Positions 50,548 through 64,000 are shown, counted from the stretch's first letter. The stretch: DNA of 64,000 nucleotides from an uncultured virus (IMG/VR IMGVR_UViG_3300036770_003021) (IMGVR_UViG_3300036770_003021:62001-126000); one strand, 5' to 3'. Notes: generated by a model from the sequence alone, not told the origin. Program-made: numbers and translations.

Positions 50548-50605
50548 TATTATACAAATATAATAACTGTGACACATCATTATTGAATATGTATCTAAAA
50601 ATATT

Positions 50606-50890
50606 ATGAGTGAAGTTACTAAATTTACAGAACAAGAAATGCAAGAAATCGCAATCGTTCAATCCAAATATCAACAAAAAATATTTGAACTTGGTCAATT
50701 GCAATTAGAAGAAATTGAATTGGAACAAACAAAAACAGAATTAACTGAACGTAGATCAGCTATTCTAACAGAGTGGAAAGACATTCAAAAACTAGAAGAA
50801 AACTTACTAAATAGTCTGGCTACAAAATATGGAGATGGTAGTCTTAATTTAAAAGATGGCACATTTAAGCCAGCTCCAAAAGAACAATAA
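50606..50890 (+). CDS. hypothetical coiled-coil protein
   Basis: 94 aa; KYGDGSLNLKDGTF. Confidence 0.7.
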   Translation: MSEVTKFTEQEMQEIAIVQSKYQQKIFELGQLQLEEIELEQTKTELTERRSAILTEWKDIQKLEENLLNSLATKYGDGSLNLKDGTFKPAPKEQ

Positions 50891-50892
50891 TA

Positions 50893-50922
50893 AAAAAGCC
50901 GGTCTTAATTGACCGGCTTTTT
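50893..50922. terminator. bidirectional terminator between convergent genes
   Basis: AAAAAGCCGGTC-TTAATT-GACCGGCTTTTT. Confidence 0.85.
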
Positions 50923-50925
50923 GTT

Positions 50926-51111
50926 TTACTTAGTTGGATCACCTATAGACGCATCTTCGACAATCGCTTTAATTTCATTTTCGATTTCTTTCATGCGTTC
51001 TTTGTAGCCAGCAGCTACATCTTTAAAATCTTTCTTTACATGCAAAAGATTTTCGGTTAGTTCATATACTTTCTTTTCGGCTTCAGCCTTTGTTAATTTA
51101 ATATTACTCAT
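50926..51111 (-). CDS. hypothetical protein
   Basis: 61 aa ORF. Confidence 0.6.
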   Translation of the reverse strand: MSNIKLTKAEAEKKVYELTENLLHVKKDFKDVAAGYKERMKEIENEIKAIVEDASIGDPTK

Positions 51112-51136
51112 AACTTTAATATATATTTAATATACA

Positions 51137-51358
51137 ATGAATGACGTAAATTTTCAAGATATAAAAATTAAAGATCACCATATAACAATCTGGGCTGATA
51201 GATTTATTGTTTTAAGACACCCAGAAAAATGTGATTTATATGAAGACGAAACTTGTAGAGAGAAAATGTTAGATTATCTACAAAAAGAAGGATATATAGA
51301 TCCAGAAAAATGCAACTGTTTAGTATTTGATAGTTACATTGACTTTGAACCGCAATAA
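51137..51358 (+). CDS. hypothetical protein
   Basis: 73 aa ORF. Confidence 0.6.
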   Translation: MNDVNFQDIKIKDHHITIWADRFIVLRHPEKCDLYEDETCREKMLDYLQKEGYIDPEKCNCLVFDSYIDFEPQ

Positions 51359-51385
51359 AAAACCCCAAGCATAACTTGGGGTTTT
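51359..51385. terminator. bidirectional terminator ending the tRNA/tmRNA transcript
   Basis: AAAACCCCAAG-CATAA-CTTGGGGTTTT. Confidence 0.85.
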
Positions 51386-51390
51386 AAAAA

Positions 51391-51777
51391 TGGTGGAGAT
51401 GGCGAGGAGTCGCACCCCGCGTCCATAAAAAATTATTACTGCCAGACTACACGCTTATATATTTTATATTGTTAGGGGTTAATAATGAAAAATATCTAAA
51501 AATATTACCCTTAAGATTTACTAATATCTTGACCATTTACGCAAATCAAATATTTGGTCCAGTCCAATAATTTACACCCAACACAAATATCAGACTTCAT
51601 TGTATTGAATGTGCAACAACTTAGGCTGCAAGGGCTACAACGTCATCGTAAGAGAAGTCATAGCTAACTACGTTATCTTCAGCAGTTAATGTTTCGATAG
51701 GTGTATTAAAGAGGCCAACTATCATCCTCTACGTGCCTAACAATAGATATTTATCTATGTCAAATCTACGCATCCCC
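51391..51777 (-). ncRNA. ssrA: tmRNA; tag (A)AEDNVVSYDFSYDDVVALAA at 51621-51683
   Basis: GGGGATG/CATCTCC-ACCA acceptor with G3-U; T-arm; resume context TTAACT-GCT; ALAA-stop end. Confidence 0.93.
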
Positions 51778-51800
51778 ATAAAATTTTAAAGAACTGAAAT

Positions 51801-51874
51801 TGGAGCGGGTAGCCGGAATCGAACCGGCACATCGACCTTGGCAAGGTTGCAGGCTACCACTACATCATACCCGC
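51801..51874 (-). tRNA. tRNA-Gly(GCC)
   Basis: Manual cloverleaf, loop TT-GCC-AA, CCA. Confidence 0.92.
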
Positions 51875-51923
51875 GCTCTCTATAATATATAGTTGAAATC
51901 AATCAATATACATTAATTTAAAA

Positions 51924-51998
51924 TGGTGGACCGTAAGAGAATCGAACTCTTCCCTAAAGCTTGCAAAGCTCCCGTGCTACCACTATCACCAACAGCCC
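51924..51998 (-). tRNA. tRNA-Ala(TGC)
   Basis: Loop TT-TGC-AA, G3-U70, CCA. Confidence 0.9.
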
Positions 51999-52010
51999 AT
52001 ATCTATAAAG

Positions 52011-52039
52011 ATCTTACACCAATATATAGTGTATGTCAA
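52011..52039 (-). promoter_or_regulatory. sigma70-like internal promoter
   Basis: TTGACA-N17-TAAGAT upstream of Ala/Gly/tmRNA. Confidence 0.55.
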
Positions 52040-52049
52040 ATCAAAAATT

Positions 52050-52267
52050 CAACCCTATCCTATCTGGATCAGATTCGTCCGGGTCAGACATACAGGGGTG
52101 TATCGTGTCCCTCACGCTGTTGGAGTCAATCCCCAACACGCACATTGTTCTATCCCAGACACCTTGGCGGTTTTATGGGCATATTTAACCCACAGATTAT
52201 TAGCCGAACACAGCCGTTGGTTATTGTTTCGGACCTAGCCAAGTTCAAACCTCTACCGTTGTCTGGT
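52050..52267 (-). ncRNA. unidentified structured RNA (~215 nt)
   Basis: GC-enriched; nested helices CCAGACA/TGTCTGG, CTTGGC/GCCAAG, CCGAA/TTCGG, TGTTGG/CCAACA. Confidence 0.55.
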
Positions 52268-52275
52268 ATATAAAA

Positions 52276-52351
52276 TGGTCGGAATGACAGGACTCGCACC
52301 TGCAACCTCCTAGCTCCAAACCAGGCCGTCTACTATTGACATTACATTCCG
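52276..52351 (-). tRNA. tRNA-Pro(TGG)
   Basis: CCTGG-TT-TGG-AG-CTAGG, CCA. Confidence 0.88.
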
Positions 52352-52358
52352 ATTAAAT

Positions 52359-52434
52359 TGGCAGGGGATAAGGGAATCGAACCCCTACAGACGCGGGTCC
52401 AAAGCCCGCCGCGCTACCACTACGCAAATCCCCA
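52359..52434 (-). tRNA. tRNA-Gln(TTG)
   Basis: GCGGG-CT-TTG-GA-CCCGC, CCA. Confidence 0.9.
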
Positions 52435-52447
52435 GTTGAACTTCATA

Positions 52448-53131
52448 TTAATTTATAATAATACCATAAGATTTACACCATTTTCTCACAGCATTATCTG
52501 ACACACCATATTTTTTACCTAAACTCACCATTGTATTTTCTTTTACTTCTTTTTCCAAAATTTCTTTGGTTGGTCTATCTGTTTTTCTTTTTTCATATCT
52601 TGGTTGATGTCTCCAATCAGGATTTATTTCTGATGGTTTAATGCGGTGTTTATTTAGAGAACGACCCGCAAATGTAGATGTTTGACTATGACAATTCGGA
52701 CATAAAAATTCTAAATTTTCAATTCTATTATCATCTGATATTCCGTTTTTATGTTCTAATTGAAGAGTTAATTTTTCATTTTCCCAAATGCCATTATTTT
52801 TACATTTTGCACATTCATATTTTATTATATTAAATTTAATTAAACGTTTTTTTAAATCTGTTCTATTACAACGAGAATTTGTTGTCAATTTTTTTAATAA
52901 ATCTTCTTTTGTAACTTGTCTTGTCCAATTACTTGATTGTGTCCTAGAAAGGAAATGACTGGTATCAATTTGTAATTCAACAATTCTTTTTTTACAAGTT
53001 TTAAAATTTCCACCTTTATTTTCCATACCAAAGTGTTTTAGTAACTCAGACATAGTTTTGCTATTTTTTACTAAAGTTGTAAATTTTTCGTTTGAAACTT
53101 TCCAGATAATACTTGTTCTATTTTTACTCAT
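52448..53131 (-). CDS. HNH homing endonuclease
   Basis: CAKC, LQLEHKNG...DNRIENLEFLCPNCH, C-terminal HTH. Confidence 0.9.
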   Translation of the reverse strand: MSKNRTSIIWKVSNEKFTTLVKNSKTMSELLKHFGMENKGGNFKTCKKRIVELQIDTSHFLSRTQSSNWTRQVTKEDLLKKLTTNSRCNRTDLKKRLIKFNIIKYECAKCKNNGIWENEKLTLQLEHKNGISDDNRIENLEFLCPNCHSQTSTFAGRSLNKHRIKPSEINPDWRHQPRYEKRKTDRPTKEILEKEVKENTMVSLGKKYGVSDNAVRKWCKSYGIIIN

Positions 53132-53191
53132 ACATACATAAATATGTAAGAACAGAATGAAAGTTCAATTTTTAATATTAAATTTATTAAA

Positions 53192-53266
53192 TGGCAGGGG
53201 ATACCGGTTACGCTCCGATTCTCTCAGATTCAAAGTCTGATTTGCTACTATTACAATCAATCCCCG
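53192..53266 (-). tRNA. tRNA-Gln(TTG), second copy
   Basis: TCAGA-CT-TTG-AA-TCTGA, CCA. Confidence 0.85.
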
Positions 53267-53277
53267 GTTACTAAAAA

Positions 53278-53352
53278 TGGTGCAGTAGGAGAGAATTGAA
53301 CTCTCATTTCAAGTTTGGAAGACTCACGTAATAGCCATTATACCACTACTGC
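53278..53352 (-). tRNA. tRNA-Gly(TCC)
   Basis: TGAGT-CT-TCC-AA-ACTTG, CCA. Confidence 0.88.
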
Positions 53353-53437
53353 ATTTTAATAAATTATTAGATGTTCAGTCATCAAATATTTGATGTGTAC
53401 TATGAACCACGGACAGGTAATCTAATTTCTCATAGCG

Positions 53438-53528
53438 CGGAGGCGAAGGGTGCTGCCCCCTCAGTGGCTTTTTAAACCACGGCAATTTAGCAAATTGCTG
53501 TAGAAACCTAACTATCTACGTCACCTCC
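53438..53528 (-). tRNA. tRNA-Ser(GCT)
   Basis: GCAAT-TT-GCT-AA-ATTGC, long variable arm, no encoded CCA. Confidence 0.82.
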
Positions 53529-53612
53529 ATAAAATCTTTGACAATCTCCGATTTCTTCACGGGACGATATTATCAGTCCTCGGCTCCATTGTCAAGTGGA
53601 GTTGTATTAAAA

Positions 53613-53704
53613 TGGCGGTTGATGTCCGTACTGCCCGGACCTTCGTCTTTCAACGAACCTAGTTTTCAAGACTAGTGCAGCCAGCTTATATCTGCCTATC
53701 AACC
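53613..53704 (-). tRNA. tRNA-Ser(TGA)
   Basis: CTAGT-CT-TGA-AA-ACTAG, long variable arm, CCA. Confidence 0.87.
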
Positions 53705-53712
53705 GTATAAAT

Positions 53713-53797
53713 TGGTGGGCATAGAGGGACTTGAACCTCCACGGATTTCTCCCCGAGCTTCTAAGACTCGTGCGTCTGCCAATTTCGCCATATGCCC
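53713..53797 (-). tRNA. tRNA-Leu(TAG)
   Basis: CGAGT-CT-TAG-AA-GCTCG, variable arm, CCA. Confidence 0.92.
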
Positions 53798-53803
53798 ATA
53801 AAA

Positions 53804-53877
53804 TGGTCGGCCACGCCAGAATTGAACTGGCTCCACATGCTCCCAAAGCACGGATGCTACCGTAACACCTGTGACCG
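53804..53877 (-). tRNA. tRNA-Pro(TGG), second copy
   Basis: CGTGC-TT-TGG-GA-GCATG, CCA. Confidence 0.87.
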
Positions 53878-53899
53878 TTTGATTTGTTAATCAAAAAAA

Positions 53900-53974
53900 T
53901 GGTAGGCGGTAAAGGATTTGAACCTCTGGCCTTGACCGTGTAAAGGTCCTGCTCTTCCACTGAGCTAACCGCCC
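53900..53974 (-). tRNA. tRNA-Val(TAC)
   Basis: GACC-TT-TAC-AC-GGTC, CCA. Confidence 0.93.
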
Positions 53975-54122
53975 ATTTAAAATTTGTTGGATTGTGTACC
54001 TATCGTTGGTAGCCCTTATTTCTAAGGACCGGCGTCTCCTATTCCTTGGCTCGCCTCTACGGTTTTGATCTCAGTTCAAACTTTCTAAAGACTGTTGATG
54101 TTGTTTACATCGTTATATTTCT

Positions 54123-54150
54123 AATTTACCACACCTTCTCATTTTGTCAA
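54123..54150 (-). promoter_or_regulatory. sigma70-like promoter heading tRNA array 1
   Basis: TTGACA-N10-GTGTGG-TAAATT. Confidence 0.7.
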
Positions 54151-54162
54151 CACCTAAAAATC

Positions 54163-54225
54163 AAAAACCCGTCATTCTTTTTTTGAAGTGACGGGTTGGT
54201 TCTTTTAGGAGCAAACAACCTCGCC
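54163..54225 (-). promoter_or_regulatory. attenuator 1: antiterminator (54216-54225 with 54190-54198) overlapping terminator (54163-54197)
   Basis: GGCGAGGTTG pairs with CAACCCGTC; alternative AACCCGTCA(C)TTC/GAATGACGGGTT plus U-run. Confidence 0.7.
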
Positions 54226-54226
54226 T

Positions 54227-54280
54227 TCAACTTCCGGATGGGAGTTGACTGGCTTGACTAGGTTGTGAAATTAAATTCAT
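54227..54280 (-). CDS. putative leader peptide 1, MNLISQPSQASQLPSGS
   Basis: 17-codon ORF just upstream of attenuator hairpins; codons match array 1 amino acids. Confidence 0.7.
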   Translation of the reverse strand: MNLISQPSQASQLPSGS

Positions 54281-54327
54281 ATTGTTACTAATATATAGTA
54301 TTCAAAATACAAAATCAACAAAATTTT

Positions 54328-55236
54328 TTAAAAAGTTTTAAATCCACTCAAATCGAACTCGTTAACTTTATATCCAACACTTAGTGATGATATTGTATTA
54401 TTTATTTCGGTTATATAACTAGGAATACTTGTTCCAACACCAGCAGAACTTCCTAATGTCATATACCAACCACCTATCAATACTATTTCATTATTAATAA
54501 TAGTAGAGACAATATTGCCGCTGTCACCACCAATTAAAGCTTCAAAATATTGCGCTCTATTAGGATCTTTTGATAGATTTATTACTGTGTTATTTGATCC
54601 ATATGAACCATTAATACCTCCAAATTCTCCAATCAAAGCTTTTCTTTCTTGATCAGAATATAGTATTGGGAAATTAATTTTGTTCACATCAAAATATTTG
54701 GTGTAATTAGCTGGCAATACACTGTATACTTTTAATGAATCATCAACTTCTTTATCCAACTCACCAATTAAAATGTCTGTATTACCCACTCGTTTTGTTT
54801 TGACAACATTGTAAGTAAGTGTAACGTTATTATTATTTACAAAGAAAATAAGAAATGGAGTTGATGAATAAGGCACGTGATTTGCAAATAATACATGTTT
54901 CTTAGTTATAAGTGTTCCGCCGCCAACTCCTCCTAAAGGTACAATACAAGAAGAATATCCCGTCAAATTAATACTCTTTGCCCAACAATTATTGTTTCTA
55001 GGCCAATTATAAGGATTAACATATGGAGTTAAAATATTCTTGTCTTTCTTTTCTTTAATTAAATTGTCAAAGTTAGAATTGATATGTGACAACAAATCCA
55101 ACTTTACTACATTTGTTGTTCCAGTTATTCCTGATGATGATGCTTGTGATGATAAAGCATCTTTCTTTGCCTGATCAATTATTTTTTGTAACAAAATTGC
55201 GTGTTCCGCTAATAAACTTTCCATTATAGTAGGCAT
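54328..55236 (-). CDS. trypsin-like serine protease
   Basis: GTLITKKHVLFANH, DILIG, GGDSG catalytic triad motifs. Confidence 0.75.
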   Translation of the reverse strand: MPTIMESLLAEHAILLQKIIDQAKKDALSSQASSSGITGTTNVVKLDLLSHINSNFDNLIKEKKDKNILTPYVNPYNWPRNNNCWAKSINLTGYSSCIVPLGGVGGGTLITKKHVLFANHVPYSSTPFLIFFVNNNNVTLTYNVVKTKRVGNTDILIGELDKEVDDSLKVYSVLPANYTKYFDVNKINFPILYSDQERKALIGEFGGINGSYGSNNTVINLSKDPNRAQYFEALIGGDSGNIVSTIINNEIVLIGGWYMTLGSSAGVGTSIPSYITEINNTISSLSVGYKVNEFDLSGFKTF

Positions 55237-55278
55237 AAAATAAATCTTTCTTTATTTATAAATATGCGCAAAATAAAA

Positions 55279-55302
55279 AACCCGCTTATTTCTAAGCGGG
55301 TT
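55279..55302 (-). terminator. intrinsic terminator
   Basis: AACCCGCTTA-TTTC-TAAGCGGGTT plus U-run on minus strand. Confidence 0.8.
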
Positions 55303-55327
55303 CACATTTGTAATTCTACAATTACTA

Positions 55328-56026
55328 TTAGAAGGTCAATTTCAAACCACCAGAATATACAATGTCACCACTAAATTCACGGGTTGCCCAATTGTACTTG
55401 GTAGTATTAAAGTTGTTGTCATACCATCCAGCACTTACAAATGGAGTAAATACACCAAATGAAGTTTCAAACGGACGAGTCAATGCCAACTTTGCATTTA
55501 CAGCGGTATAATCTTCTACCTTACCATACTCAACTCCAGGAGTTACAACAAATCCAAATGGAAGTTTTTGAGCACGTTCTGCACCAACAAATACACCACT
55601 TTGCTTCAAGTCTACATCATAATATCCACGAACATATGGTGTAACAATCTTGTTTGGTAGTGCCAACTTAACACCAAATTCAGTGCTGTTGGGAATACCA
55701 AAGTTACCAGCTTGGTGACGAGTTACAGTAGTATCCAATCGTGCGGAAAATACATCCTTCCACACATTTACTTCTTTTCCAGCACCCAAAGTCCAATGAG
55801 ACTGATCTAGGTCGCCATTGGCCAAAAGAGTACCACCCAAATATACATCCGCATACTTTAAACTCTTTACAGCACCTACACCCACAAATGGCGTGCCTTC
55901 AGAACGAGCTACACCGTTAACGATGTACTGGTTGTTATAACCAGCCTCTACTGAGATGTTAGAATTATCTCCAGCAGTAACTGCTAGAGCGGTCAACAAT
56001 GACACTAATACTAATACTTTCTTCAT
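55328..56026 (-). CDS. outer-membrane beta-barrel protein (porin-like)
   Basis: Signal peptide, amphipathic beta-strands, C-terminal GGLKLTF BAM-type signal. Confidence 0.75.
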   Translation of the reverse strand: MKKVLVLVSLLTALAVTAGDNSNISVEAGYNNQYIVNGVARSEGTPFVGVGAVKSLKYADVYLGGTLLANGDLDQSHWTLGAGKEVNVWKDVFSARLDTTVTRHQAGNFGIPNSTEFGVKLALPNKIVTPYVRGYYDVDLKQSGVFVGAERAQKLPFGFVVTPGVEYGKVEDYTAVNAKLALTRPFETSFGVFTPFVSAGWYDNNFNTTKYNWATREFSGDIVYSGGLKLTF

Positions 56027-56164
56027 ATTTTTAACTATCCTTTTTGTTTGTTTTGTTATTTACACCACACTAATTCAGATTACAAAAAAATAACCATCTT
56101 TAATGCGTTTTGGGACCGTCCCAAATATTGTTGTATATAAATAGTTTTATATTTTTATAATAAA

Positions 56165-56488
56165 TTATTTATTTACCGCTGACTTTTTGAGTTTTTTATA
56201 CAAAGCTTTGTCTTTCTCAGGCAAATAAACATACGACGCTTTTTGTGACTTTTTATTTTCACCCAAAACACTAAGCGTATCTTCACTTACCTCCAACACT
56301 TTACCAATAGCATTTTTAATAAACCTAAAACTATCAGTACCAGATATTTCTATACAAATGCCGTAATTTAAACTTTTATATTGTACATCAGTAGCTCCAT
56401 AAAAAGAACACAAAATGTCTTTAATTTTAGCCTTCTTGTCTTCACTAAAGACCAGATTAGCCATATCAATTTTACTTAATTCATTCAT
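56165..56488 (-). CDS. hypothetical protein
   Basis: 107 aa ORF. Confidence 0.6.
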   Translation of the reverse strand: MNELSKIDMANLVFSEDKKAKIKDILCSFYGATDVQYKSLNYGICIEISGTDSFRFIKNAIGKVLEVSEDTLSVLGENKKSQKASYVYLPEKDKALYKKLKKSAVNK

Positions 56489-56499
56489 ACTATACTTTT

Positions 56500-56527
56500 A
56501 TTATACTTGTTAATGTCACATTGTCAA
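56500..56527 (-). promoter_or_regulatory. sigma70-like promoter
   Basis: TTGACA-N16-TATAAT. Confidence 0.7.
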
Positions 56528-56589
56528 TAAAAAATAAAACGATTAATTTTTACATTAATCGTTGTACTTTATATAAATTTATTTAATTT

Positions 56590-57003
56590 TTACTTTGATT
56601 TTTTCATCAACTGCAACGCCTTTTTTAACTTTGGGTCTTGTTGAGCTTTTGATTGTAACCAAGCATTGTAATTGCTTTTTTCACTACGAGCGTCTTCACT
56701 GTCTCTATATAGTTTAGCATATTTCTTTACAATGTCTCTAAATGGATCACCACTTTCTTTAAGTCTGGCAATTTTATCTTTCAACATCTGTTTGTATTTC
56801 TCAATAGAACCATAATCTTTTGCTCTACTTGGATCAGGATTTTTTAACAAATTTTCCAAGTCTTTGATGTCTTTAGCTTTATCAGTTTCAGATAAAGTAG
56901 CAGTCAATTTATCACTCTCTACTTCAGCTGCATTGTCAAAATCTTCAACTAAAATTTCCTTGGTCAAACTTTTGATTAACTTTTTTAAATCGTTCTTGGT
57001 CAT
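56590..57003 (-). CDS. hypothetical protein with head-protein-type leader
   Basis: MTKNDLKKLIKSLTKEILVE. Confidence 0.65.
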   Translation of the reverse strand: MTKNDLKKLIKSLTKEILVEDFDNAAEVESDKLTATLSETDKAKDIKDLENLLKNPDPSRAKDYGSIEKYKQMLKDKIARLKESGDPFRDIVKKYAKLYRDSEDARSEKSNYNAWLQSKAQQDPKLKKALQLMKKSK

Positions 57004-57038
57004 ATGTTATAAATATAAAAATTGTAAAATAGGTACAC

Positions 57039-57209
57039 TTATTTTTGTTTTATGCTTTCACTCCAACCAACTCTGTGTTTGGTCATCCAATCTACCAACG
57101 CTTGTTCAAATCCTATATCGTTTCCAAGTTTTTCACTCTCTATCCATTTATGTTTTTCAATTTCTTTTTTCAATTCCAAAAACTTTTGATAGAGATTACT
57201 TTTTTCCAT
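57039..57209 (-). CDS. small DUF4032-like protein (56 aa)
   Basis: Manual translation MEKSNLYQKFLELKKEIEKHKWIESEKLGNDIGFEQALVDWMTKHRVGWSESIKQK. Confidence 0.7.
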   Translation of the reverse strand: MEKSNLYQKFLELKKEIEKHKWIESEKLGNDIGFEQALVDWMTKHRVGWSESIKQK

Positions 57210-57271
57210 ACCCAAATAAATAGAAAATAAAATGGAGTATTGTGTAATATACGAATTAATTTTAAAATTTT

Positions 57272-57362
57272 TGGAGCACGATCAAGGTTACGCTCCTTGC
57301 ATATGTATTTTCATACAATGATGTTTTGCAGACATCTCAGTTCTCTAGCTCTGTCATCGTGC
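57272..57362 (-). tRNA. tRNA-Cys(GCA) with long variable arm
   Basis: GATGT-CT-GCA-AA-ACATC, U73, CCA. Confidence 0.8.
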
Positions 57363-57373
57363 TTTATATAAAA

Positions 57374-57448
57374 TGGTTGTCACGGTAGGACTTGCACCCA
57401 CAATCTTCTGGGTCAGAACCAGCTGCGATTCTATTACGCTACGTGACA
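57374..57448 (-). tRNA. tRNA-Gln(CTG)
   Basis: CTGG-TT-CTG-AC-CCAG, U1-A72, CCA. Confidence 0.75.
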
Positions 57449-57450
57449 AT

Positions 57451-57525
57451 TGGAGCCTGCAATTGGTTTTGACCCAATATCTATCAATTTACGAAATTGA
57501 TGCTTTACTATTAAGCTATACAGGC
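57451..57525 (-). tRNA. tRNA-Thr(CGT)
   Basis: TCAAT-TT-CGT-AA-ATTGA, CCA. Confidence 0.85.
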
Positions 57526-57531
57526 ATTAAA

Positions 57532-58335
57532 TTATTCGTCCGCATTTGAACCAAAAATACGCTTCCAAAAACCCACTTTTTTAGGTTTTTCCTCTTGTTT
57601 TGATTCATCTACTTGATTAATTTCTTTTGATAAATTATTTGAGTGCTGATTTGAAATTTTCATCAAAACTTCCGCACCTTTTGGCCACTCACCCAATTTG
57701 TTTTTAAATTCATAACCACTTTTTTTCATATTTTGTCTCAAATTTTGAGCCAAAAGTGCATTTTCTCTCTTCAATTCCTCTATAATTTTTTCATACTCAA
57801 CAATCTTGTTCTTCAAGAAATCTCTTTCTTTTGTAAGCTCTTCAATCTTAGCCACAAGCTCATTTTGATCTTTATCAGTCTTTGCAACTTTAAGCTCATC
57901 ACTCAAATCTACGATCTCTTTAGTCATTTTTACAAGCGTATTACGCAATGATTTTAAATCAGATTCAAGCGCAGATTTTTCTTGGGTCAAATCTTTAATC
58001 TTTATGTCTTTTTCATCAGATGATAATTTTAACTTCTCAGTAATATTCTGTAACTGAGTTAAATTAGTATGCAATATACTCAATTTATTGTCATAACTCT
58101 TCAATAATGAAGTCATTTCCACATTTTTTTGATTTAAATTGGTAATCAATAAACTTTGATTTACAACAATCTCAGACTGATTAGCAACTTTTTTAGACAA
58201 AACTTTATTGTCTTTATTTAATGAACTAAATAATGCGTATAATCCAAAAATTACCAATACAATTACAGCAATTATTGAATATAATACCTTTTTATTAGTA
58301 AACGAAAATGTTTGGGGAGAGTTTGTAGATTCCAT
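57532..58335 (-). CDS. membrane-anchored coiled-coil protein
   Basis: N-terminal TM helix, long heptads, C-terminal GFWKRIFG amphipathic helix. Confidence 0.75.
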   Translation of the reverse strand: MESTNSPQTFSFTNKKVLYSIIAVIVLVIFGLYALFSSLNKDNKVLSKKVANQSEIVVNQSLLITNLNQKNVEMTSLLKSYDNKLSILHTNLTQLQNITEKLKLSSDEKDIKIKDLTQEKSALESDLKSLRNTLVKMTKEIVDLSDELKVAKTDKDQNELVAKIEELTKERDFLKNKIVEYEKIIEELKRENALLAQNLRQNMKKSGYEFKNKLGEWPKGAEVLMKISNQHSNNLSKEINQVDESKQEEKPKKVGFWKRIFGSNADE

Positions 58336-58388
58336 AAATTTATTTTATTATATATATAATACCCTCACACTTAAATATATTTTTAAAA

Positions 58389-58462
58389 TGGAGCCTCCAG
58401 CAGGTACCGCCCCTGCGTTTCATCATTACCAATGATGTGTAATACTTTTATACTATGAAGGC
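58389..58462 (-). tRNA. tRNA-Thr(GGT)
   Basis: CATCA-TT-GGT-AA-TGATG, CCA. Confidence 0.87.
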
Positions 58463-58467
58463 AAAAA

Positions 58468-58545
58468 TGGCACACCCGGCAGGATTCGAACCTGCAATCT
58501 TCTCGTTAGAACCGAGTCGCTTTAGTCCAGTTTAGCTACGAGTGC
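58468..58545 (-). tRNA. tRNA-Arg(TCT)
   Basis: CTCG-GT-TCT-AA-CGAG, CCA. Confidence 0.88.
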
Positions 58546-58687
58546 GTTAAAATTACCCACCACTGTTCGAACAATGGTGGCACCAACACGATAGTTTGCT
58601 AATAGGCTTATTCGGTTTGTGTTCGTCGTCAACACAAATCCCGCTATCTCTTTTACCACACGACCTGCTTCATAGAGTTGGTGAAAA

Positions 58688-58761
58688 TGGTTGACCGTGC
58701 CGGTTACGCTCCGGCGTAGGACGATTATCAGTCGTCTATTCTGCTATTGAATTAACGGTCA
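58688..58761 (-). tRNA. tRNA-Ile(GAT)
   Basis: GACGA-CT-GAT-AA-TCGTC, CCA. Confidence 0.87.
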
Positions 58762-58768
58762 ATTGAAA

Positions 58769-58844
58769 TGGCGAGGTATATGGGTGCTGCCCCCACTATC
58801 TTTTCCGTGACAGGGAAATGAGTCTGCTGTTCCTCTTATACCCC
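58769..58844 (-). tRNA. tRNA-Asp(GTC)
   Basis: TTTCC-CT-GTC-AC-GGAAA, CCA. Confidence 0.87.
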
Positions 58845-58935
58845 AAAAAATTGGTGCTGTGCTCTCCACGCCGTCTCTGTGTTTTACCGATTGTACCGGT
58901 CGGCAGTCACTTATGGGGCCAGTTACCCATTAAAT

Positions 58936-59014
58936 TGGTGGAGCCAGTGGGTAATGCTCCCACACGAATCGTCCGGTTAAAAGCCGGCTGCCCGTCTATT
59001 GTGGCTTTGACTCC
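58936..59014 (-). tRNA. tRNA-Lys(TTT)
   Basis: CCGG-CT-TTT-AA-CCGG, CCA. Confidence 0.85.
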
Positions 59015-59108
59015 ATAAATTGGTGGGTCTTTCCCTCTGTCACTCTTTAATCCCTAGGATTTCAACCCCGGCAAATATCGGTTACGAGTTACCGCTAGAC
59101 TTATAAAA

Positions 59109-59184
59109 TGGTGGAATCATCGGGATTTGAACCCGAATCACGATATTAAGAGTATCGTAGTCTAGCCAATTGACTTATGATTCC
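59109..59184 (-). tRNA. tRNA-Lys(CTT)
   Basis: CGATA-CT-CTT-AA-TATCG, CCA. Confidence 0.92.
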
Positions 59185-59226
59185 ATTATTAAAAATTTCT
59201 TCTTACATTGTCAACGAACTATAATC

Positions 59227-59254
59227 ATCTTACCACACTTTATAACTTCGTCAA
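59227..59254 (-). promoter_or_regulatory. sigma70-like internal promoter in tRNA array 2
   Basis: TTGACG-N10-GTGTGG-TAAGAT. Confidence 0.7.
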
Positions 59255-59272
59255 CAGCTTTTTAAAAAAACT

Positions 59273-60022
59273 TTAAACGTTACTTTGTTTCTTTGGATAT
59301 GGTTGAATTGACTTAATCAATCCACCCAATATTCTTTTACCATCACTAGAATTTTGTCCGGATAAAATATAAATGTACATATGTTTTCCAGTAGCAGTTC
59401 TTATTTCAAATGGACTATTAGGATTGGTTCTTGCATCATTTGCTGCATCTTTACCAGTTTCAAAACCATACTTCTTTATTTGTGGTAATCTATACACCCA
59501 CTTGTTTTCTTTTTTATCCCACAAACGTTTTGTATCTTTACTCTTGCCTAAATAAATTGCATTTGTTGCTTGATATATAGATCCAGTATGTCCCTGTCCA
59601 CTATCAGCCCGTGTAATAACAACCTTTAATTCGGGATAATCCTGTTTAATCTTTTTATTACCCAAACCAATTACATACGACGCCAAGTTGCTTAACTCAG
59701 GTATTTGTTTTGCCTCAGGTTTCAAATATAATCTCAATAACTCAAATACTTCATTCTTTTGCAATAAACTGTTGCCCTCTGCATCTACAGCTATTTCTTC
59801 ATAATCTTGTGGCTTGGTGGTTTGTCCATAAACAATCACTCCTACCATATCCACATTACCATCTGTCTTCTTGTACATCACACCATAATTAGCAGCCACC
59901 GCCGTAGGATATGTCTTTAAATAATGCTGCTTAATAAAATTCAATACTTCAGATTTACTCTTGGGTTCCAAATATACACTATCTTTCAAACCCTCCAATA
60001 TTAATTCTTTCAATTTAATCAT
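59273..60022 (-). CDS. Mom-like (GNAT-fold) DNA modification protein
   Basis: FIKQHY, ELLRLY, ADSGQGHTGSIYQATNAIYLG. Start moved to MIKLKEL (60022). Confidence 0.75.
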   Translation of the reverse strand: MIKLKELILEGLKDSVYLEPKSKSEVLNFIKQHYLKTYPTAVAANYGVMYKKTDGNVDMVGVIVYGQTTKPQDYEEIAVDAEGNSLLQKNEVFELLRLYLKPEAKQIPELSNLASYVIGLGNKKIKQDYPELKVVITRADSGQGHTGSIYQATNAIYLGKSKDTKRLWDKKENKWVYRLPQIKKYGFETGKDAANDARTNPNSPFEIRTATGKHMYIYILSGQNSSDGKRILGGLIKSIQPYPKKQSNV

Positions 60023-60055
60023 ATGATATAAATATCTGCATGCATCGTCAAAAAA

Positions 60056-60131
60056 TGGTCCCAATTGTTGGTTCCGCCCCAACCTCTCAAGTTCTTCAGA
60101 CTTGCGCTTTCACTAGGTTAGCTTAACTGGG
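60056..60131 (-). tRNA. tRNA-Phe(GAA)
   Basis: CAAGT-CT-GAA-GA-ACTTG, CCA. Confidence 0.85.
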
Positions 60132-60232
60132 ATTATAAATCTATTGACAAGTCAAAGGAATCGAACCTTTTCGGAACAGAGTCGCCCGCTCCTTTACCAC
60201 GCCCTGCGCACTAGCACCTGTCAAAAACTAAA

Positions 60233-60333
60233 TTGTGTGGTTGGAATCGAACCAACGGCCCGTGCTTATTCACACTTTTACGGTGTCATTTACCATCATA
60301 GTGAGCACTGATCTACCCCTGAACTACACACAA
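60233..60333 (-). tRNA. tRNA-like gene with 37-nt expanded anticodon loop; identity undetermined
   Basis: Acceptor TTGTGTG/CACACAA, D-arm, GTGCT/AGCAC stem, T-arm GTTGG-TTCGATT-CCAAC. Confidence 0.65.
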
Positions 60334-60340
60334 TCTAAAA

Positions 60341-60727
60341 TTAAATTTTGTTTTTTGTTTTTTGCCATTTTTCTACACAATATTCGTGGTATTCTTTTTT
60401 GCAAATTTCACATCTACATTTATGATTTATATAACCAGATTTACCGTGTTTCCAAGATTCTCTATTAATTAAATAATCTTTGTTATCTAAACTTTTCTTC
60501 AAATGACACGGATAACATAATAATTGACATTTGTGTATTTCTCTTACAAAGACTTCTATATTTGTTGTAAACATAGAAGATATTTCATTCACTTTCGTTC
60601 TTGGATCTATATGGTCAAATTGTAAATCTTTTTCAGAATTACATTTACAACATTTACCTCCAAGCATTTCAAGTCCAAGTTGTTTTCTTTTTTTTCTATA
60701 GTTTTGTATATATTCTTTTGTAGGCAT
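60341..60727 (-). CDS. HNH endonuclease
   Basis: CCKC, LQFDHIDP, CQLLCYPCH, HG..GY..HKCRCEIC. Confidence 0.85.
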   Translation of the reverse strand: MPTKEYIQNYRKKRKQLGLEMLGGKCCKCNSEKDLQFDHIDPRTKVNEISSMFTTNIEVFVREIHKCQLLCYPCHLKKSLDNKDYLINRESWKHGKSGYINHKCRCEICKKEYHEYCVEKWQKTKNKI

Positions 60728-60807
60728 AAATTTCTCCTACAAATAAATATCATTGAATTAAACTAAAGTTACAAAAAGTTACAATGTTGTAATTGTTGTT
60801 AATAAAA

Positions 60808-60893
60808 TGGTGGGGTATGTAGGTAATGCTCCTACCCAGCCCGAAGGCAACGGTTTTACAGACCGTTCTGCGTCTTTATCAGTATAATACCCC
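60808..60893 (-). tRNA. tRNA-Tyr(GTA)
   Basis: ACGGT-CT-GTA-AA-ACCGT, variable arm, CCA. Confidence 0.87.
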
Positions 60894-61031
60894 AAAAAAT
60901 ATATAATGTATGATGAACAATGAAATTATTTAAATTTCTTAAGGCACTTTATGTTCATACTATTGCAATTTGATCAACTGCCTAACCCTCAATCAGCATA
61001 CTCCATACATCATATAAAACTATTGAAAGAG

Positions 61032-61154
61032 CTCCAGAGGAGGGTTTCGAACCCCCAACCCTGCGGTTAACTTTGGCCTTGTGAGATTTGCACTCTCTAT
61101 TAAATAATACTTTATGGCCCACAGCCGCATGCTCTACCATTGAGCTACTCTGGA
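61032..61154 (-). tRNA. tRNA-Asn(GTT) interrupted by a 51-nt insertion in the anticodon loop
   Basis: Canonical Asn body; removing 61072-61122 restores TGCGG-CT-GTT-AA-CCGCA. Confidence 0.8.
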
Positions 61155-61162
61155 ATTGAAAA

Positions 61163-61240
61163 TGGCTCCAGCCCTTGGCTCCGCCCCAAGCTCGACACGG
61201 TTTAACAGACCGCCGGTTACACTAAGTTTCCTTGACTGGA
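61163..61240 (-). tRNA. tRNA-Asn(GTT)
   Basis: GCGGT-CT-GTT-AA-ACCGT, CCA. Confidence 0.82.
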
Positions 61241-61384
61241 ATTAAAAATTAAATTTGAAAGTGTGGATTCTCTTACCACCACTTAGGGCGGACTGCCCAG
61301 TTCTGACTTCAACAGACTCTCTTTCAAAAAATGTTTACTGGATTTCACTATGCTTGTTCCACCTACTAACTATAACCTCGTCAG

Positions 61385-61414
61385 ATTATAACCTTCAATG
61401 TCTATCAGTGTCAA
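61385..61414 (-). promoter_or_regulatory. consensus sigma70 promoter inside array 2
   Basis: TTGACA-N18-TATAAT. Confidence 0.55.
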
Positions 61415-61431
61415 TACATTACTTACTACTT

Positions 61432-61508
61432 CAACTATTGATTCAGATTCGAACTGAATGACTACTGCATACAGCGCAGTTGCTTTACCAATTAAGCTAC
61501 GTTCGTTG
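61432..61508 (-). pseudogene. tRNA-like element with intact D, anticodon and T arms but disrupted acceptor stem
   Basis: TAGCTTAATTGGTAAAGC; ACTGC-GCTGTAT-GCAGT; TTCAG-TTCGAAT-CTGAA; no CCA. Confidence 0.6.
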
Positions 61509-61531
61509 CCTTCACCTAATGTATTTAAAAA

Positions 61532-62203
61532 TTATTTATATACTCTACCTTTAACATATCCGTTTGTCAAGTATGTTTGTAGTTGTTCTTTTTTAATTTT
61601 AAGATTTTTATTTGTTTCAGAATGATATACCCAACAAGTTCCATATTGGGAATTTTTTGCACCGGATTGTGCTACTTTTAGTTTTTCTCCGATTTTCTTT
61701 TTTGTATCTTCTTTATGTTTTTTACCGGTCCAATGAAAAGCATTTTGTTTCCATTTTTCCTTTAAAGATGTTGATACTTTCTGTTTCCATTCTTCAAATA
61801 ATCCTTTTTCAATTAAAAATTCTTTTATCTTATCTCCTGTCAACAAATTCTTTTTCCTAATCTCAATATTTTTATGATGTATATTTTTTCCAGATTCGTT
61901 TATATAAGAATAACCGCCATAACCACCTTCCATTATATTGTAAGTATTATTCGATTCAATAAATAATTGGTTTACAATTTCTCTTTCTTTGGAAAACATT
62001 TCTTCAGCGGTATCAAATATAAATAAAATTTCTTTAATAAAATTTTCTTCACCATATTTTTGTATTGCTCTTTTTAGAAGTTTTCCAGAACCCATATAAT
62101 TGTCCTGCAAATTTTTTGTTTTATGCATTCCAATGTAAATTTTTTGGTTCAATTTATTTGTAATCTTATATATCGTGTATTTATATTGAGCGTTCGTGTC
62201 CAT
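61532..62203 (-). CDS. GIY-YIG (Seg-like) homing endonuclease with NUMOD3-like motif
   Basis: TIYKITN...YIGMH, YMGSG, YNI..GG, GKKHKEDTKKKI. Start moved to MDTNAQ (62203). Confidence 0.9.
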   Translation of the reverse strand: MDTNAQYKYTIYKITNKLNQKIYIGMHKTKNLQDNYMGSGKLLKRAIQKYGEENFIKEILFIFDTAEEMFSKEREIVNQLFIESNNTYNIMEGGYGGYSYINESGKNIHHKNIEIRKKNLLTGDKIKEFLIEKGLFEEWKQKVSTSLKEKWKQNAFHWTGKKHKEDTKKKIGEKLKVAQSGAKNSQYGTCWVYHSETNKNLKIKKEQLQTYLTNGYVKGRVYK

Positions 62204-62252
62204 AATAATAAATATAGACACGAACTCAAATAATATTATTTTTTTTGAAATG

Positions 62253-62327
62253 CATCCACCGTAAGAATCGAACTTACCCACGGGCTTTTGGAGAGCCTGT
62301 CGCCTAATCCTTGGAACATTGGCGGAT
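62253..62327 (-). tRNA. tRNA-Trp(CCA)
   Basis: GGCT-CT-CCA-AA-AGCC; full CCA not encoded. Confidence 0.8.
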
Positions 62328-62337
62328 ATACTATAAA

Positions 62338-62414
62338 TGGCAGTCGCATTGGGATTTGAACCCTATTCTCCATCTTGAGAGGATGGTGTCCTATCACACA
62401 TAGACGATGCGACC
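62338..62414 (-). tRNA. tRNA-Glu(CTC)
   Basis: CCATC-CT-CTC-AA-GATGG, CCA. Confidence 0.88.
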
Positions 62415-62519
62415 GTTAAATATTGTGACGAGATTACCCCAGTAGGAATTACCCGGCATGCAAGGGCTCCTTCAATCTTTTGGGTTTAAGTCTCTTTGTT
62501 GCCCTCGTCACTTTTAAAA

Positions 62520-62597
62520 TGGTAGCCCCACGGGGAATTGAACCCACGATTTGTAGATTGAAAGTCTACCGTCCTATACCCATTAGACGATGAGGCC
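62520..62597 (-). tRNA. tRNA-Glu(TTC)
   Basis: GTAGA-CT-TTC-AA-TCTAC, CCA. Confidence 0.9.
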
Positions 62598-62608
62598 ATT
62601 ATATAAAT

Positions 62609-62686
62609 TGGTGCTTCAGTGAGGATTCGAACCCCAAACTCAACGTTCGTAGCGTTGCGTGATAAATCCATTTTCACCACCGAAGC
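62609..62686 (-). tRNA. tRNA-Arg(ACG)
   Basis: CAACG-CT-ACG-AA-CGTTG, CCA. Confidence 0.9.
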
Positions 62687-62692
62687 ATAAAT

Positions 62693-62768
62693 TGGTTACC
62701 CCACTTGGATTTTCACCAAGGTTGATGTCTCAGAGAACACATCCGTCCTAAACCTAGACGATAGGGTA
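62693..62768 (-). tRNA. Glu-type tRNA with 10-nt anticodon loop
   Basis: D-arm CGTCTAG..AGGACG as in the Glu tRNAs; GATGT-GTTCTCTGAG-ACATC; CCA. Confidence 0.6.
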
Positions 62769-62776
62769 ATTAAAAT

Positions 62777-62852
62777 TGGGGTGAATAAGGAGATTTGCAC
62801 TCCCTTTGATTGCTTCACAGGCAATGCTCTTACTACATAGAGGATATTCACC
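62777..62852 (-). tRNA. tRNA-His(GTG)
   Basis: ATTGC-CT-GTG-AA-GCAAT, G-1/C73, CCA. Confidence 0.87.
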
Positions 62853-62864
62853 ATTACTATAAGC

Positions 62865-62946
62865 TGGAGCCGTTGACAGGATTCGAACCTGCGATGATTT
62901 TCCAGTTTACAAAACTGGTGTTTTCAACCACTCAACTCACAACGGC
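62865..62946 (-). tRNA. tRNA-Thr(TGT)
   Basis: CCAGT-TT-TGT-AA-ACTGG, CCA. Confidence 0.87.
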
Positions 62947-62959
62947 GTTAAATTTTCTT

Positions 62960-63173
62960 TACTTCAACATTCACAGTAATCACCTCAGTAATACTGTCAT
63001 CGCCCTATGGGTTCTGTATTCCAGCATAACACCCACGGACCAATCAATTGATTTTCCCAGACTTTACCCTATCGTCAATTTCTTGACTCACTGGAGGAGG
63101 TTCAACAGATGGAGTTTCAAACCTTCCTTACTCTTTATTCAGTCTATCACAGCTTTCGCCATTGTCAACTGAC
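62960..63173 (-). ncRNA. unidentified structured RNA (~210 nt) at the head of array 2
   Basis: GNRA hairpins ATGGC-GAAA-GCTGT and GTCAA-GAAA-TTGAC; TCAGTT/GACTGA; TGGGT/ACCCA. Confidence 0.5.
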
Positions 63174-63230
63174 TTTTAAAATTTCTTTTTCGTCATCCAA
63201 TGAACTACTTACTTCGTTCACTGTTTAACT

Positions 63231-63258
63231 ACTTTACCACACATCCAAAGAACGTCAA
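63231..63258 (-). promoter_or_regulatory. sigma70-like promoter heading tRNA array 2
   Basis: TTGACG-N10-GTGTGG-TAAAGT. Confidence 0.7.
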
Positions 63259-63268
63259 CCCAGAAAAT

Positions 63269-63347
63269 AAAAAAACCGTCACTTTTTTTCGGTGACGGTT
63301 GATATTGTTTGGGTTTCAGATCTACATTTACACAATATCAGCCGCCA
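63269..63347 (-). promoter_or_regulatory. attenuator 2: antiterminator (63332-63347 with 63293-63308) overlapping terminator (63269-63300)
   Basis: TGGCGGCTGATATTGT pairs with ACAATATCAACCGTCA (15 of 16); alternative AACCGTCAC/GTGACGGTT plus U-run. Confidence 0.8.
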
Positions 63348-63411
63348 TACCTCTATCTTCACGATTTGTAAAGGTATTCCAACGCTTAATATTTGTATAA
63401 TGTACTTTCAT
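63328..63411 (-). CDS. putative leader peptide 2, MKVHYTNIKRWNTFTNREDRGMAADIV
   Basis: 27-codon ORF overlapping the antiterminator arm; codons match array 2 anticodons. Confidence 0.78.
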   Translation of the reverse strand: MKVHYTNIKRWNTFTNREDRGMAADIV

Positions 63412-63444
63412 TACGTTAATATATATCAAGAAATTTACTAAACG

Positions 63445-63594
63445 TCAATATTTTTTTGCAAAATTCTTTATAACCTTATAACAACTATAAAAACAATACA
63501 GTGTCAAAGCACTCAAAGCACCCACTCCAAAACTCATACCAATTGTTATAACCCAACCAATTATATTACGTTGCTCTTCGCTCAATGTAAACAT
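63445..63594 (-). CDS. small membrane protein (49 aa)
   Basis: Manual translation MFTLSEEQRNIIGWVITIGMSFGVGALSALTLYCFYSCYKVIKNFAKKY. Confidence 0.5.
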   Translation of the reverse strand: MFTLSEEQRNIIGWVITIGMSFGVGALSALTLYCFYSCYKVIKNFAKKY

Positions 63595-63670
63595 ATCGCA
63601 CAATACATACTTGTTTTTCAATCATTAAACTTATTATATTAAATTAAAATTATAAACAACTATTAACGCA

Positions 63671-64000
63671 ATGGTATCTATATCTGTTATGCACAATTTT
63701 ACCATAGACTATACAGACGGACTTGTTATAAACAACAACTACAACGATGTTGAATTCGCCAAAGACAAACAATCACACTACATGGTCAAAACTTACTTTG
63801 TGCACAAAAAAATAAAACGCAGCCTACAATCTCACCCAGATCAATTGGGCATCACAGCCACCATAGAAGAAACACACTCATCTTCAGATAAAACACTGCT
63901 CACAACCAATAACTGCAACCTGGGATGTTGGCTAATGCCAAGCTTTGTAAAACACTTTGTTCCATATCACGTAGACATTTATTACAACGACAAATTGTAT
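63671..64000 (+). CDS. partial hypothetical protein (runs off window)
   Basis: Open frame from ATG 63671/63689 to the window end. Confidence 0.55.
   Translation, partial: MVSISVMHNFTIDYTDGLVINNNYNDVEFAKDKQSHYMVKTYFVHKKIKRSLQSHPDQLGITATIEETHSSSDKTLLTTNNCNLGCWLMPSFVKHFVPYHVDIYYNDKLY

Follow-up and report, generated by a model that had tools for sequence, protein, structure and literature searches.

Two tRNA arrays and their upstream modules

The DNA analysed here is a stretch of 64,000 nucleotides (nt) from an uncultured virus (IMG/VR IMGVR_UViG_3300036770_003021), which covers bases 62001-126000 of a single contig of 134,039 bases with 34% G+C and is referred to in the following as the window. 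It carries two arrays of transfer RNA (tRNA) genes, and upstream of each lies a small module composed of a promoter, a very short open reading frame (ORF), an intrinsic terminator and a second promoter. In the following, we describe these modules and discuss whether they act as transcription attenuators that respond to the supply of the tRNAs encoded behind them. All positions are window coordinates taken from the sequence ruler, and the features are given in minus-strand orientation throughout.

The tRNA genes found in the contig at default thresholds all lie on the minus strand, at 51801-62946; ARAGORN makes 18 tRNA calls with default settings, and Rfam returns 24 tRNA matches at or above the gathering score together with a transfer-messenger RNA (tmRNA; RF00023). 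Array 1 (51801-53974), assigned with ARAGORN and Rfam and by eye, comprises genes for Val-UAC, Pro-UGG (two copies), Leu-UAG, Ser-UGA, Ser-GCU, Gly-UCC, Gln-UUG (two copies), Ala-UGC and Gly-GCC, and serves the seven amino acids V, P, L, S, G, Q and A, which we call the array-1 set. Both of its tRNA-Ser genes are non-canonical in the window, where ARAGORN and Rfam miss them and they were identified by eye; in relatives, ARAGORN directly calls the array-1 set, including genes that are non-canonical in the window. The array is closed by a phage tmRNA gene (51391-51777; RF00023, 104.9 bits, E = 1.4e-40), which takes the same position in relatives and has the highest or near-highest depth in contigs from RNA libraries.

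Array 2 (57272-62946) encodes tRNAs for Thr, His, Arg, Glu, Trp, Asn, Tyr, Phe, Lys, Asp, Ile, Gln(CUG) and Cys, and homing-endonuclease and other genes lie scattered among them. Several of these tRNA genes are non-canonical: Ile-GAU, Thr-GGU and Lys-UUU were found by ARAGORN at relaxed settings only, and Tyr-GUA and Asp-GUC by eye. Jointly, the two arrays serve 19 amino acids. When nine of the non-canonical tRNA-like genes were compared by BLAST with the ARAGORN-called tRNAs of 11 relatives, one of the nine was matched, and the identities of these nine rest on anticodon loops read by eye.

Upstream of each array, the minus strand reads a first promoter (P1), a near-leaderless mini-ORF (the leader), an intrinsic terminator, a second promoter (P2) and then the tRNA genes. 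This agrees with the original prediction, made from the sequence of the window, that promoter, mini-ORF and terminator stand in a common minus-strand layout before both arrays; P2 had been overlooked there. In module 1, P1 (54290-54318; promoter scan score 9/12) is followed by leader ORF 1 (54227-54280), which has 17 codons and a stop codon, and by a terminator at 54156-54197 with a stem of 9-10 base pairs (bp), a 14-nt loop and a T-run. This terminator was recognized by folding; a simple terminator scan missed it because its loop is longer than the scan rule permits. P2 of module 1 (54123-54150) is a promoter of the sigma-70 type with an extended -10 box (10/12, TG present).

Module 2 begins with a P1 recognized by eye at 63418-63448, which the promoter scan did not list and which consists of a -35-like hexamer (63443-63448) and an AT-rich -10 box (63418-63425). 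Leader ORF 2 (63328-63411) has 27 codons and a stop codon and is, like leader ORF 1, kept in relatives. Its ATG stands 6 nt past the -10 box, so that the mRNA is predicted to be leaderless; across both modules this distance is 6-9 nt, which predicts mRNAs with a leader of 0 or 2-3 nt and without a Shine-Dalgarno sequence. The terminator of module 2 (63264-63300), a 9-bp stem followed by a T-run, was again identified by folding and was listed by the simple scan on the plus strand only. Directly behind it lies a P2 of the sigma-70 type with an extended -10 box (63231-63258; 9/12, TG present), and a further promoter with an extended -10 box, P3 (63141-63168; 10/12, TG present), precedes array 2. 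Between this last promoter and the first tRNA, at 62947-63140, we noted a conserved structured RNA element, which in this phage occurs before array 2 only and in most relatives also stands ahead of array 1 (e.g. L003:1250-1390).

The original prediction had also described the two terminator stems as related. They are indeed homologous, as the two modules can be aligned over the terminator and roughly 60 nt beyond it, and as these 60 nt constitute P2, the two P2 promoters are homologous as well. Folds of the two modules contain both terminator hairpins (z-scores of -4.45 and -3.52), and the hairpin was found at just these two places in the 134,039-base contig. Among relatives, the P1 hexamers of both modules are conserved with a variable spacer, and P2 is kept; at one locus (L078), P3 directly follows the terminator. 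A supporting hint is that several protein genes likewise have an AT-rich -10 box of the P1 type 3-13 nt before their ATG (e.g. at 51111-51125, 12230 and 38273), and leaderless or very-short-leader mRNAs may thus be common in this phage.

Relatives and alternative RNA pairings

In the GenBank phage collection, megablast returned no relative of the region, and the matches of a sensitive blastn search were limited to homing-endonuclease genes and a few tRNAs. Many relatives are present among IMG/VR contigs, and metagenomes from lakes, freshwater and the subsurface contain near-identical DNA. We collected modules from IMG/VR in four pattern scans, anchored on the terminator, on P2 and on the conserved RNA element ahead of the first tRNA. 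Of 112 pattern matches, 25 had a P2-like promoter behind the hairpin, as our filter required, and also contained a leader of either type; an automatic rule picked up 19 leader ORFs. These relatives fall into several subfamilies, in which both the leader sequences and the terminator stems are quite different.

In module 2, folding brings out three segments that compete with each other. Segment 2 (63332-63347) spans the final codons of the ORF, provides the 5' strand of an antiterminator and pairs with segment 3 (63293-63308), i.e. with the stretch before the terminator and the terminator 5' arm; the last 8 nt of segment 3 can instead pair with the terminator 3' arm. Segment 1 (63379-63405, codons 3-11) pairs with segment 2 and thereby forms an anti-antiterminator. 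The antiterminator of the window has a folding energy of -18.0 kcal/mol (z = -3.34), the pairing of segments 1 and 2 in the upstream part alone one of -23.5 kcal/mol (z = -2.45), and when the whole sequence is folded, the structure switches to the pairing of segments 1 and 2 plus the terminator. Module 1 follows the same scheme with a shorter segment 1 (54260-54266, codons 6-7) and a counterpart of segment 2, segment 2' (54215-54225), which starts 2 nt past the stop codon, close enough for a terminating ribosome to reach it. Its partner is either segment 1 (-19.1 kcal/mol, z = -2.21) or the terminator 5' arm.

These alternatives persist among the relatives. For modules of the array-2 type folded without the terminator 3' arm, 7-9 nt of the 5' arm pair with the end of the ORF in 14 of 14 variants, with energies of -13.8 to -23.0 kcal/mol that include a lower 9-bp stem compatible with the terminator. 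Likewise, in folds of the array-1 type that mimic a stalled ribosome, 9-13 nt of the arm are paired in all 14 variants, and the full-length fold yields the pairing of segments 1 and 2' together with the terminator in 13 of them. The hairpin and its T-run are present in every variant folded, of either type. An antiterminator that overlaps the terminator, another element of the original prediction, is thus found in 14 of 14 variants of each type.

Divergent variants add covariation to this picture. Two of the array-2 type (L179, L191) have an altered terminator stem together with a matching change in segment 2, and five of the array-1 type (L183, L202, L248, L262, L209) combine a different terminator stem with a matching segment 2'. 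Furthermore, the RNA motif of segment 2 persists beneath five different peptide endings and in two different reading frames, in one variant with the stop codon inside the motif; since the motif is kept while the peptide encoded over it varies, the constraint there acts on the RNA. Among close variants, RNAalifold found compensatory changes in just 2 of 31 and 1 of 28 pairs, because these sequences are nearly identical, and covariation emerged with the divergent variants only.

A promoter that yields a short transcript ending at a strong terminator ahead of a long transcription unit is also the arrangement of the lambda PR' / 6S RNA / tR' region, in which this terminator gates the long unit and the Q protein antiterminates. 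By analogy, the modules could produce a short terminated RNA from a constitutive promoter as long as RNA polymerase is not modified by a phage protein or RNA. The lambda system, however, depends on a protein and has neither a leader ORF nor an alternative RNA pairing; a factor of this kind would need neither, yet both are conserved here. No candidate factor was found, and none was sought. We therefore regard factor-dependent antitermination as highly improbable.

Amino-acid composition of the leaders

In leader 1, 14 of the 16 residues after the initial methionine belong to the array-1 set, 13 of them in one run, and codons 5-17 encode only Ser, Gln, Pro, Ala, Leu and Gly. This is what the original prediction had read from the sequence, except that array 1 additionally has a tRNA-Val. 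Leader 2 is nearly its complement: only 5 of its 26 residues are from the array-1 set, four of them within the last seven codons, and 16 of the 17 residues encoded in its sensing zone (codons 2-18) lie outside this set. The predicted match of leader 2 with array 2 holds for 18 of the 19 codons from 2 to 20, which have a cognate tRNA in that array, some of these tRNAs being relaxed-ARAGORN or by-eye calls.

The contig has 973 ATG-started ORFs with 12-40 codons, and in none of the others is the run of either leader (13 array-1 residues and 17 residues of the other set, respectively) reached; the other two frames of the leader DNA in the window have an ordinary composition. The contrast is less extreme against segments of real proteins: in ORFs of at least 100 amino acids (aa), 351 of 43,564 windows of 13 aa consist wholly of array-1 residues, and 132 of 43,040 windows of 17 aa (0.3%) are as poor in them as leader 2, with at least 16 residues outside the set. 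Within the window alone, the composition pattern is unusual but not overwhelming.

The relatives extend this comparison to 11 distinct leader peptides of the array-1 type, with 17, 18 or 24 codons, and 10 of the array-2 type, whose length differences are whole codons; the leader ORFs are thus conserved in both groups. For the array-2 type, the sensing zone was set mechanically as the codons at which a stalled ribosome leaves segment 2 free, and for the array-1 type, the window from codon 5 to the penultimate codon follows the choice made in the original prediction. The array-1 set accounts for 172 of 198 residues in array-1-type leaders and for 151 of 154 within the latter window. Conversely, 148 of 159 sensing-zone residues of the array-2 type are outside the set, versus 52 of 90 in the last nine codons, which corresponds to background. 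Both biases are confined to the reading frame: array-1 residues make up 87% in frame versus 46% and 37% in the other frames for the array-1 type, and 9% versus 46% and 36% for the zone of the array-2 type. A composition that is kept despite sequence drift is what would be predicted for a sensor of amino-acid or tRNA identity, and this comparison provides the strongest support for the original prediction.

The same data bear on the simplest explanation, namely that chance short ORFs happen to lie before ordinary terminators. In its favour, promoter-like sites abound in this AT-rich sequence (67 versus 60.3 expected), and the codon windows were chosen after the sequence was seen. Since each leader stands alone in its run length among the small ORFs, and since ORFs and bias persist in 21 distinct peptides and in frame only, we attach almost no weight to chance.

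A more serious alternative is that the modules are independent mini-genes or small RNAs with their own promoter and terminator, each followed by an insulating terminator-promoter cassette that drives the tRNAs; there would be no sensing, and the peptides or the RNAs of about 130-150 nt would have functions of their own. A promoter, a transcript of this length and a strong terminator are the usual layout of a small-RNA gene, every terminator is followed by P2, and the terminator-P2 unit is a repeated cassette. Moreover, residue order is well conserved in the N-terminal part of array-2-type peptides. Cassettes of a similar build, called PeSL, are described for T4-type phages: a terminating stem-loop joined to a strong sigma-70-like promoter, present in about 50 copies per genome upstream of orphan ORFs (PMC2839356). 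The likeness consists in a stem-loop joined to a sigma-70-like promoter and repeated in a phage genome; the cassette of our contig differs in that it occurs just twice rather than dozens of times, both times before a tRNA array and behind a mini-ORF whose end pairs with the stem. Independent mini-genes would also leave unexplained why segment 2 tracks the terminator 3' arm across subfamilies and why the two leaders have complementary amino-acid sets that match the arrays in frame only. We consider this explanation unlikely, though not negligible.

A putative pair of attenuators and the evidence on either side

Our preferred reading, to which we assign a probability of roughly 55%, is that the modules form a paralogous pair of ribosome-mediated transcription attenuators. 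The sensing codons of each would be limited to amino acids served by the array that follows it, and each would add a conditional share to the output of a basal promoter. What the analysis shows directly is the set of parts and its conservation, the alternative pairings and the match in composition; leader translation, stalling and regulated read-through are inferred. P1 would start a nearly leaderless mRNA for the mini-ORF. A ribosome that runs to the stop codon would cover segment 2, so that the terminator forms and the P1 transcript ends before the array; the outcome would be the same if no ribosome were loaded, as segment 1 would then pair with segment 2. A stall in the first 15-18 codons, by contrast, would hold segment 1 and free segment 2, which would pair with the terminator 5' arm and let transcription continue into the tRNA genes. 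Given that the sensing codons appear to be drawn from amino acids served by the array behind each leader, read-through would rise when those tRNAs are scarce and fall as phage tRNAs accumulate. P2 behind the terminator would provide the basal supply and the attenuator the conditional share; array 1 also contains the phage tmRNA gene.

Attenuators of this kind are known from the enterobacterial trp, his, pheA, thr, leu and ilvGMEDA operons, and the thr and ilv leaders are multivalent, i.e. they respond to several amino acids. The modules share with the trp, his, thr and ilv attenuators a short leader ORF that contains segment 1, mutually exclusive 1:2, 2:3 and 3:4 pairings, an intrinsic terminator and codons related to the downstream product. 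They differ from the amino-acid operons in that they are phage-encoded, that tRNA and tmRNA genes rather than enzymes lie downstream, that the start is predicted to be leaderless and lacks a Shine-Dalgarno sequence, that six or seven and about twelve amino acids are sampled instead of runs of one to three, and that a second promoter stands behind the terminator. Of seven sequence-level attenuator features considered, the modules have six, the exception being the absence of such a promoter. T-boxes also sense tRNA status by a switch between terminator and antiterminator; they bind uncharged tRNA directly, have no ORF and control synthetase and amino-acid genes, whereas the modules are ORF-based and lie before tRNA genes. 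In a search of 50000-64000 with E-values up to 1, Rfam gave no match to a Trp, His, Thr, Leu or Phe leader or to a T-box and no hits inside the modules; its hits elsewhere in this range are tRNAs, the tmRNA and sub-threshold chance hits. By sequence, the modules are probably a new variant of trp/his/ilv-type attenuation, with tRNA genes as the target.

A number of observations weigh against this reading. The first concerns the second promoter: a P2-like promoter stands behind the terminator in 12 of 12 divergent variants read by eye, and its conservation implies that the arrays do not depend on read-through, which can only add to the basal level and cannot switch an array on. The proposal that stalling induces the matching array is thus not supported as it stands, in view of the conserved P2 and P3 promoters behind the terminators. 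As neither ORF has a Shine-Dalgarno sequence, translation would have to be leaderless, and substitutions in the leaders give modest evidence of translation for the array-2 type (10 synonymous among 27 single-base codon differences in the sensing zone versus 4.9 expected) and none for the array-1 type (9 of 32 versus 8.9 expected); the underlying test is a crude minimum-spanning tree, and it is noisy because the groups mix subfamilies. At two loci (L077, L091), the core of leader 1 forms the end of a longer ORF, of about 65 codons, that lies behind the same promoter, and seven of seven more distant loci have coding sequence up to the first tRNA of the array and no module. Some of the folding results point in the same direction: the antiterminator of module 1, folded as the single sequence of the window, is not better than shuffles (z = -0.55), and the energy gained by adding the terminator arm does not differ significantly from that of shuffled leaders (P = 0.41 and 0.54).

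Further such points arise at the level of codons and composition. The array-1 richness of leader 1 is matched by 2,059 of 43,433 windows of 14 aa (4.7%), so that stretches rich in S, P, Q, A and G are not rare in the proteins of this phage. The idea that the leader codons list the tRNAs of the array stands for amino acids, which match in frame only and across divergent subfamilies, and fails for synonymous codons: in array-1-type leaders, their choice fits the anticodons no better than genome usage does, and codon states are not enriched for decodability (47 strictly decodable versus 41.7 expected, 54 versus 60.1 with extended wobble). Similarly, co-variation between leaders and arrays was not seen on the fine scale among close relatives. 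For instance, the leader of L078 has lost its AAG, CGU and, in the zone, GAU codons, and its array retains Lys-CUU, Arg-ACG and Asp-GUC; the leaders of L026 and L132 have gained Asn and Tyr codons with no change in the array.

The lack of codon-level enrichment and of fine co-variation would also be expected if the modules were real ribosome-dependent attenuators that gauge general translation capacity or the coupling of transcription and translation rather than particular tRNAs, with an amino-acid bias of other cause. That the leaders contain many different codons instead of runs of one, and that a tmRNA gene lies behind module 1, fits this as well. On the other hand, two complementary sets fit the two arrays in divergent subfamilies, and the composition returns to background (52 of 90) precisely where stalling could not favour the antiterminator. 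We thus judge a general translation gauge to be quite improbable, and sensing of the tRNAs encoded in the array behind remains the reading that we prefer.

If attenuation by array-matched codons is accepted, a broader proposal can be made, which we put forward tentatively and with more doubt than confidence. The phage may split the genetic code between two leaderless attenuators, which jointly monitor how 19 amino acids are decoded and regulate in return the corresponding halves of the phage tRNA set as well as the tmRNA. The pair would then constitute a supply sensor for many tRNAs, which tops up replacement tRNAs as they become scarce, e.g. when anticodon nucleases have cleaved tRNAs or the host is shut off; that host tRNA depletion or such nucleases are involved is conjecture. 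Phage tRNA sets are described as replacing host tRNAs that are depleted or cleaved by tRNA-targeting defence systems (PMC10264068, PMC11464382), and the openings of both abstracts describe no control of phage tRNA expression; a link to the present locus is conjectural. A full-text literature search, to the extent of its coverage outside subscription journals, turned up no paper on phage tRNA genes that are preceded by leader peptides or controlled by attenuation.

Little is known of how phages control their tRNA genes, whose products are currently viewed either as supplements for particular codons or as substitutes for tRNAs that host defence has destroyed. If the attenuator reading is true, it would extend the classic mechanism of amino-acid operons to the tRNA pool itself, offer a direct and testable read-out of tRNA shortage during infection and supply a compact natural sensor part, with promoter, mini-ORF and switch in about 200 nt. 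The complementary amino-acid sets of the paired leaders act as an internal control and make the idea easy to test.

RNA-library contigs and further observations

Four freshwater or river metatranscriptome runs hold relatives of the region in the form of contigs, which cannot show transcript ends or levels. Their cover is very uneven, high on tmRNA and tRNA stretches and about zero on endonuclease and Mom-like genes, a pattern more in keeping with RNA than with carried-over DNA. In two studies, contigs begin at 54172, inside the 3' arm of terminator 1 and about 55 nt upstream of the expected P2 start, a weak hint that some transcripts cross this terminator. The bin of leader 1 has cover in two of the four runs; that of leader ORF 2 (63306-63700) has next to none in all four.

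The genes around the modules include tail-fibre, homing-endonuclease and Mom-like genes. A PHROGs search with 12 neighbouring proteins named only endonucleases, the Mom-like protein and a tail fibre, none of them relevant to the modules. One GIY-YIG and two HNH homing-endonuclease genes lie between tRNA genes (61532-62203, 60341-60727 and 52448-53131); contigs of all four runs join 61531 to 62252 and hence stem from relatives without the GIY-YIG gene. Between the arrays, a 232-aa ORF (55328-56026) with a signal-peptide-like N-terminus has RNA-library cover and is followed by a strong terminator (55278-55303); it has no PHROG match. A non-coding stretch at 61236-61649, behind a perfect consensus promoter (61385-61414), exceeds all other stretches by far in contig depth (252-438) in three of the four libraries and has no Rfam match; it may be an abundant small RNA.

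The tRNA genes themselves have several uncommon features. tRNA-Asn(GUU), within 61032-61154, and tRNA-Phe(GAA), within 60232-60333, have inserts of 51 nt and about 30 nt in their anticodon loops; the contigs of two runs jump from 61069 to 61121 and leave out exactly 51 nt, either because the insert was removed or because they stem from a relative that does not have it. About a dozen tRNA-like genes combine a cloverleaf fold and a normal 7-nt anticodon loop with T-loops that depart from the canonical T-Psi-C (53436-53703, 53195-53265, 52279-52351, 57272-57362, 58392-59014, 60059-60131, 60806-60885 and 61165-61240). They are missed by ARAGORN at default settings and have low or no Rfam scores, and stretches with several of them have RNA-library cover. 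Their T-loops may be an adaptation, for instance an escape from tRNA-targeting enzymes, or they may mark decaying copies. Finally, a tRNA-like gene at 62693-62768, which is conserved in relatives, has an enlarged anticodon loop; ARAGORN reads it either as a four-base anticodon or as a tRNA-Gln with a 3-nt insert.

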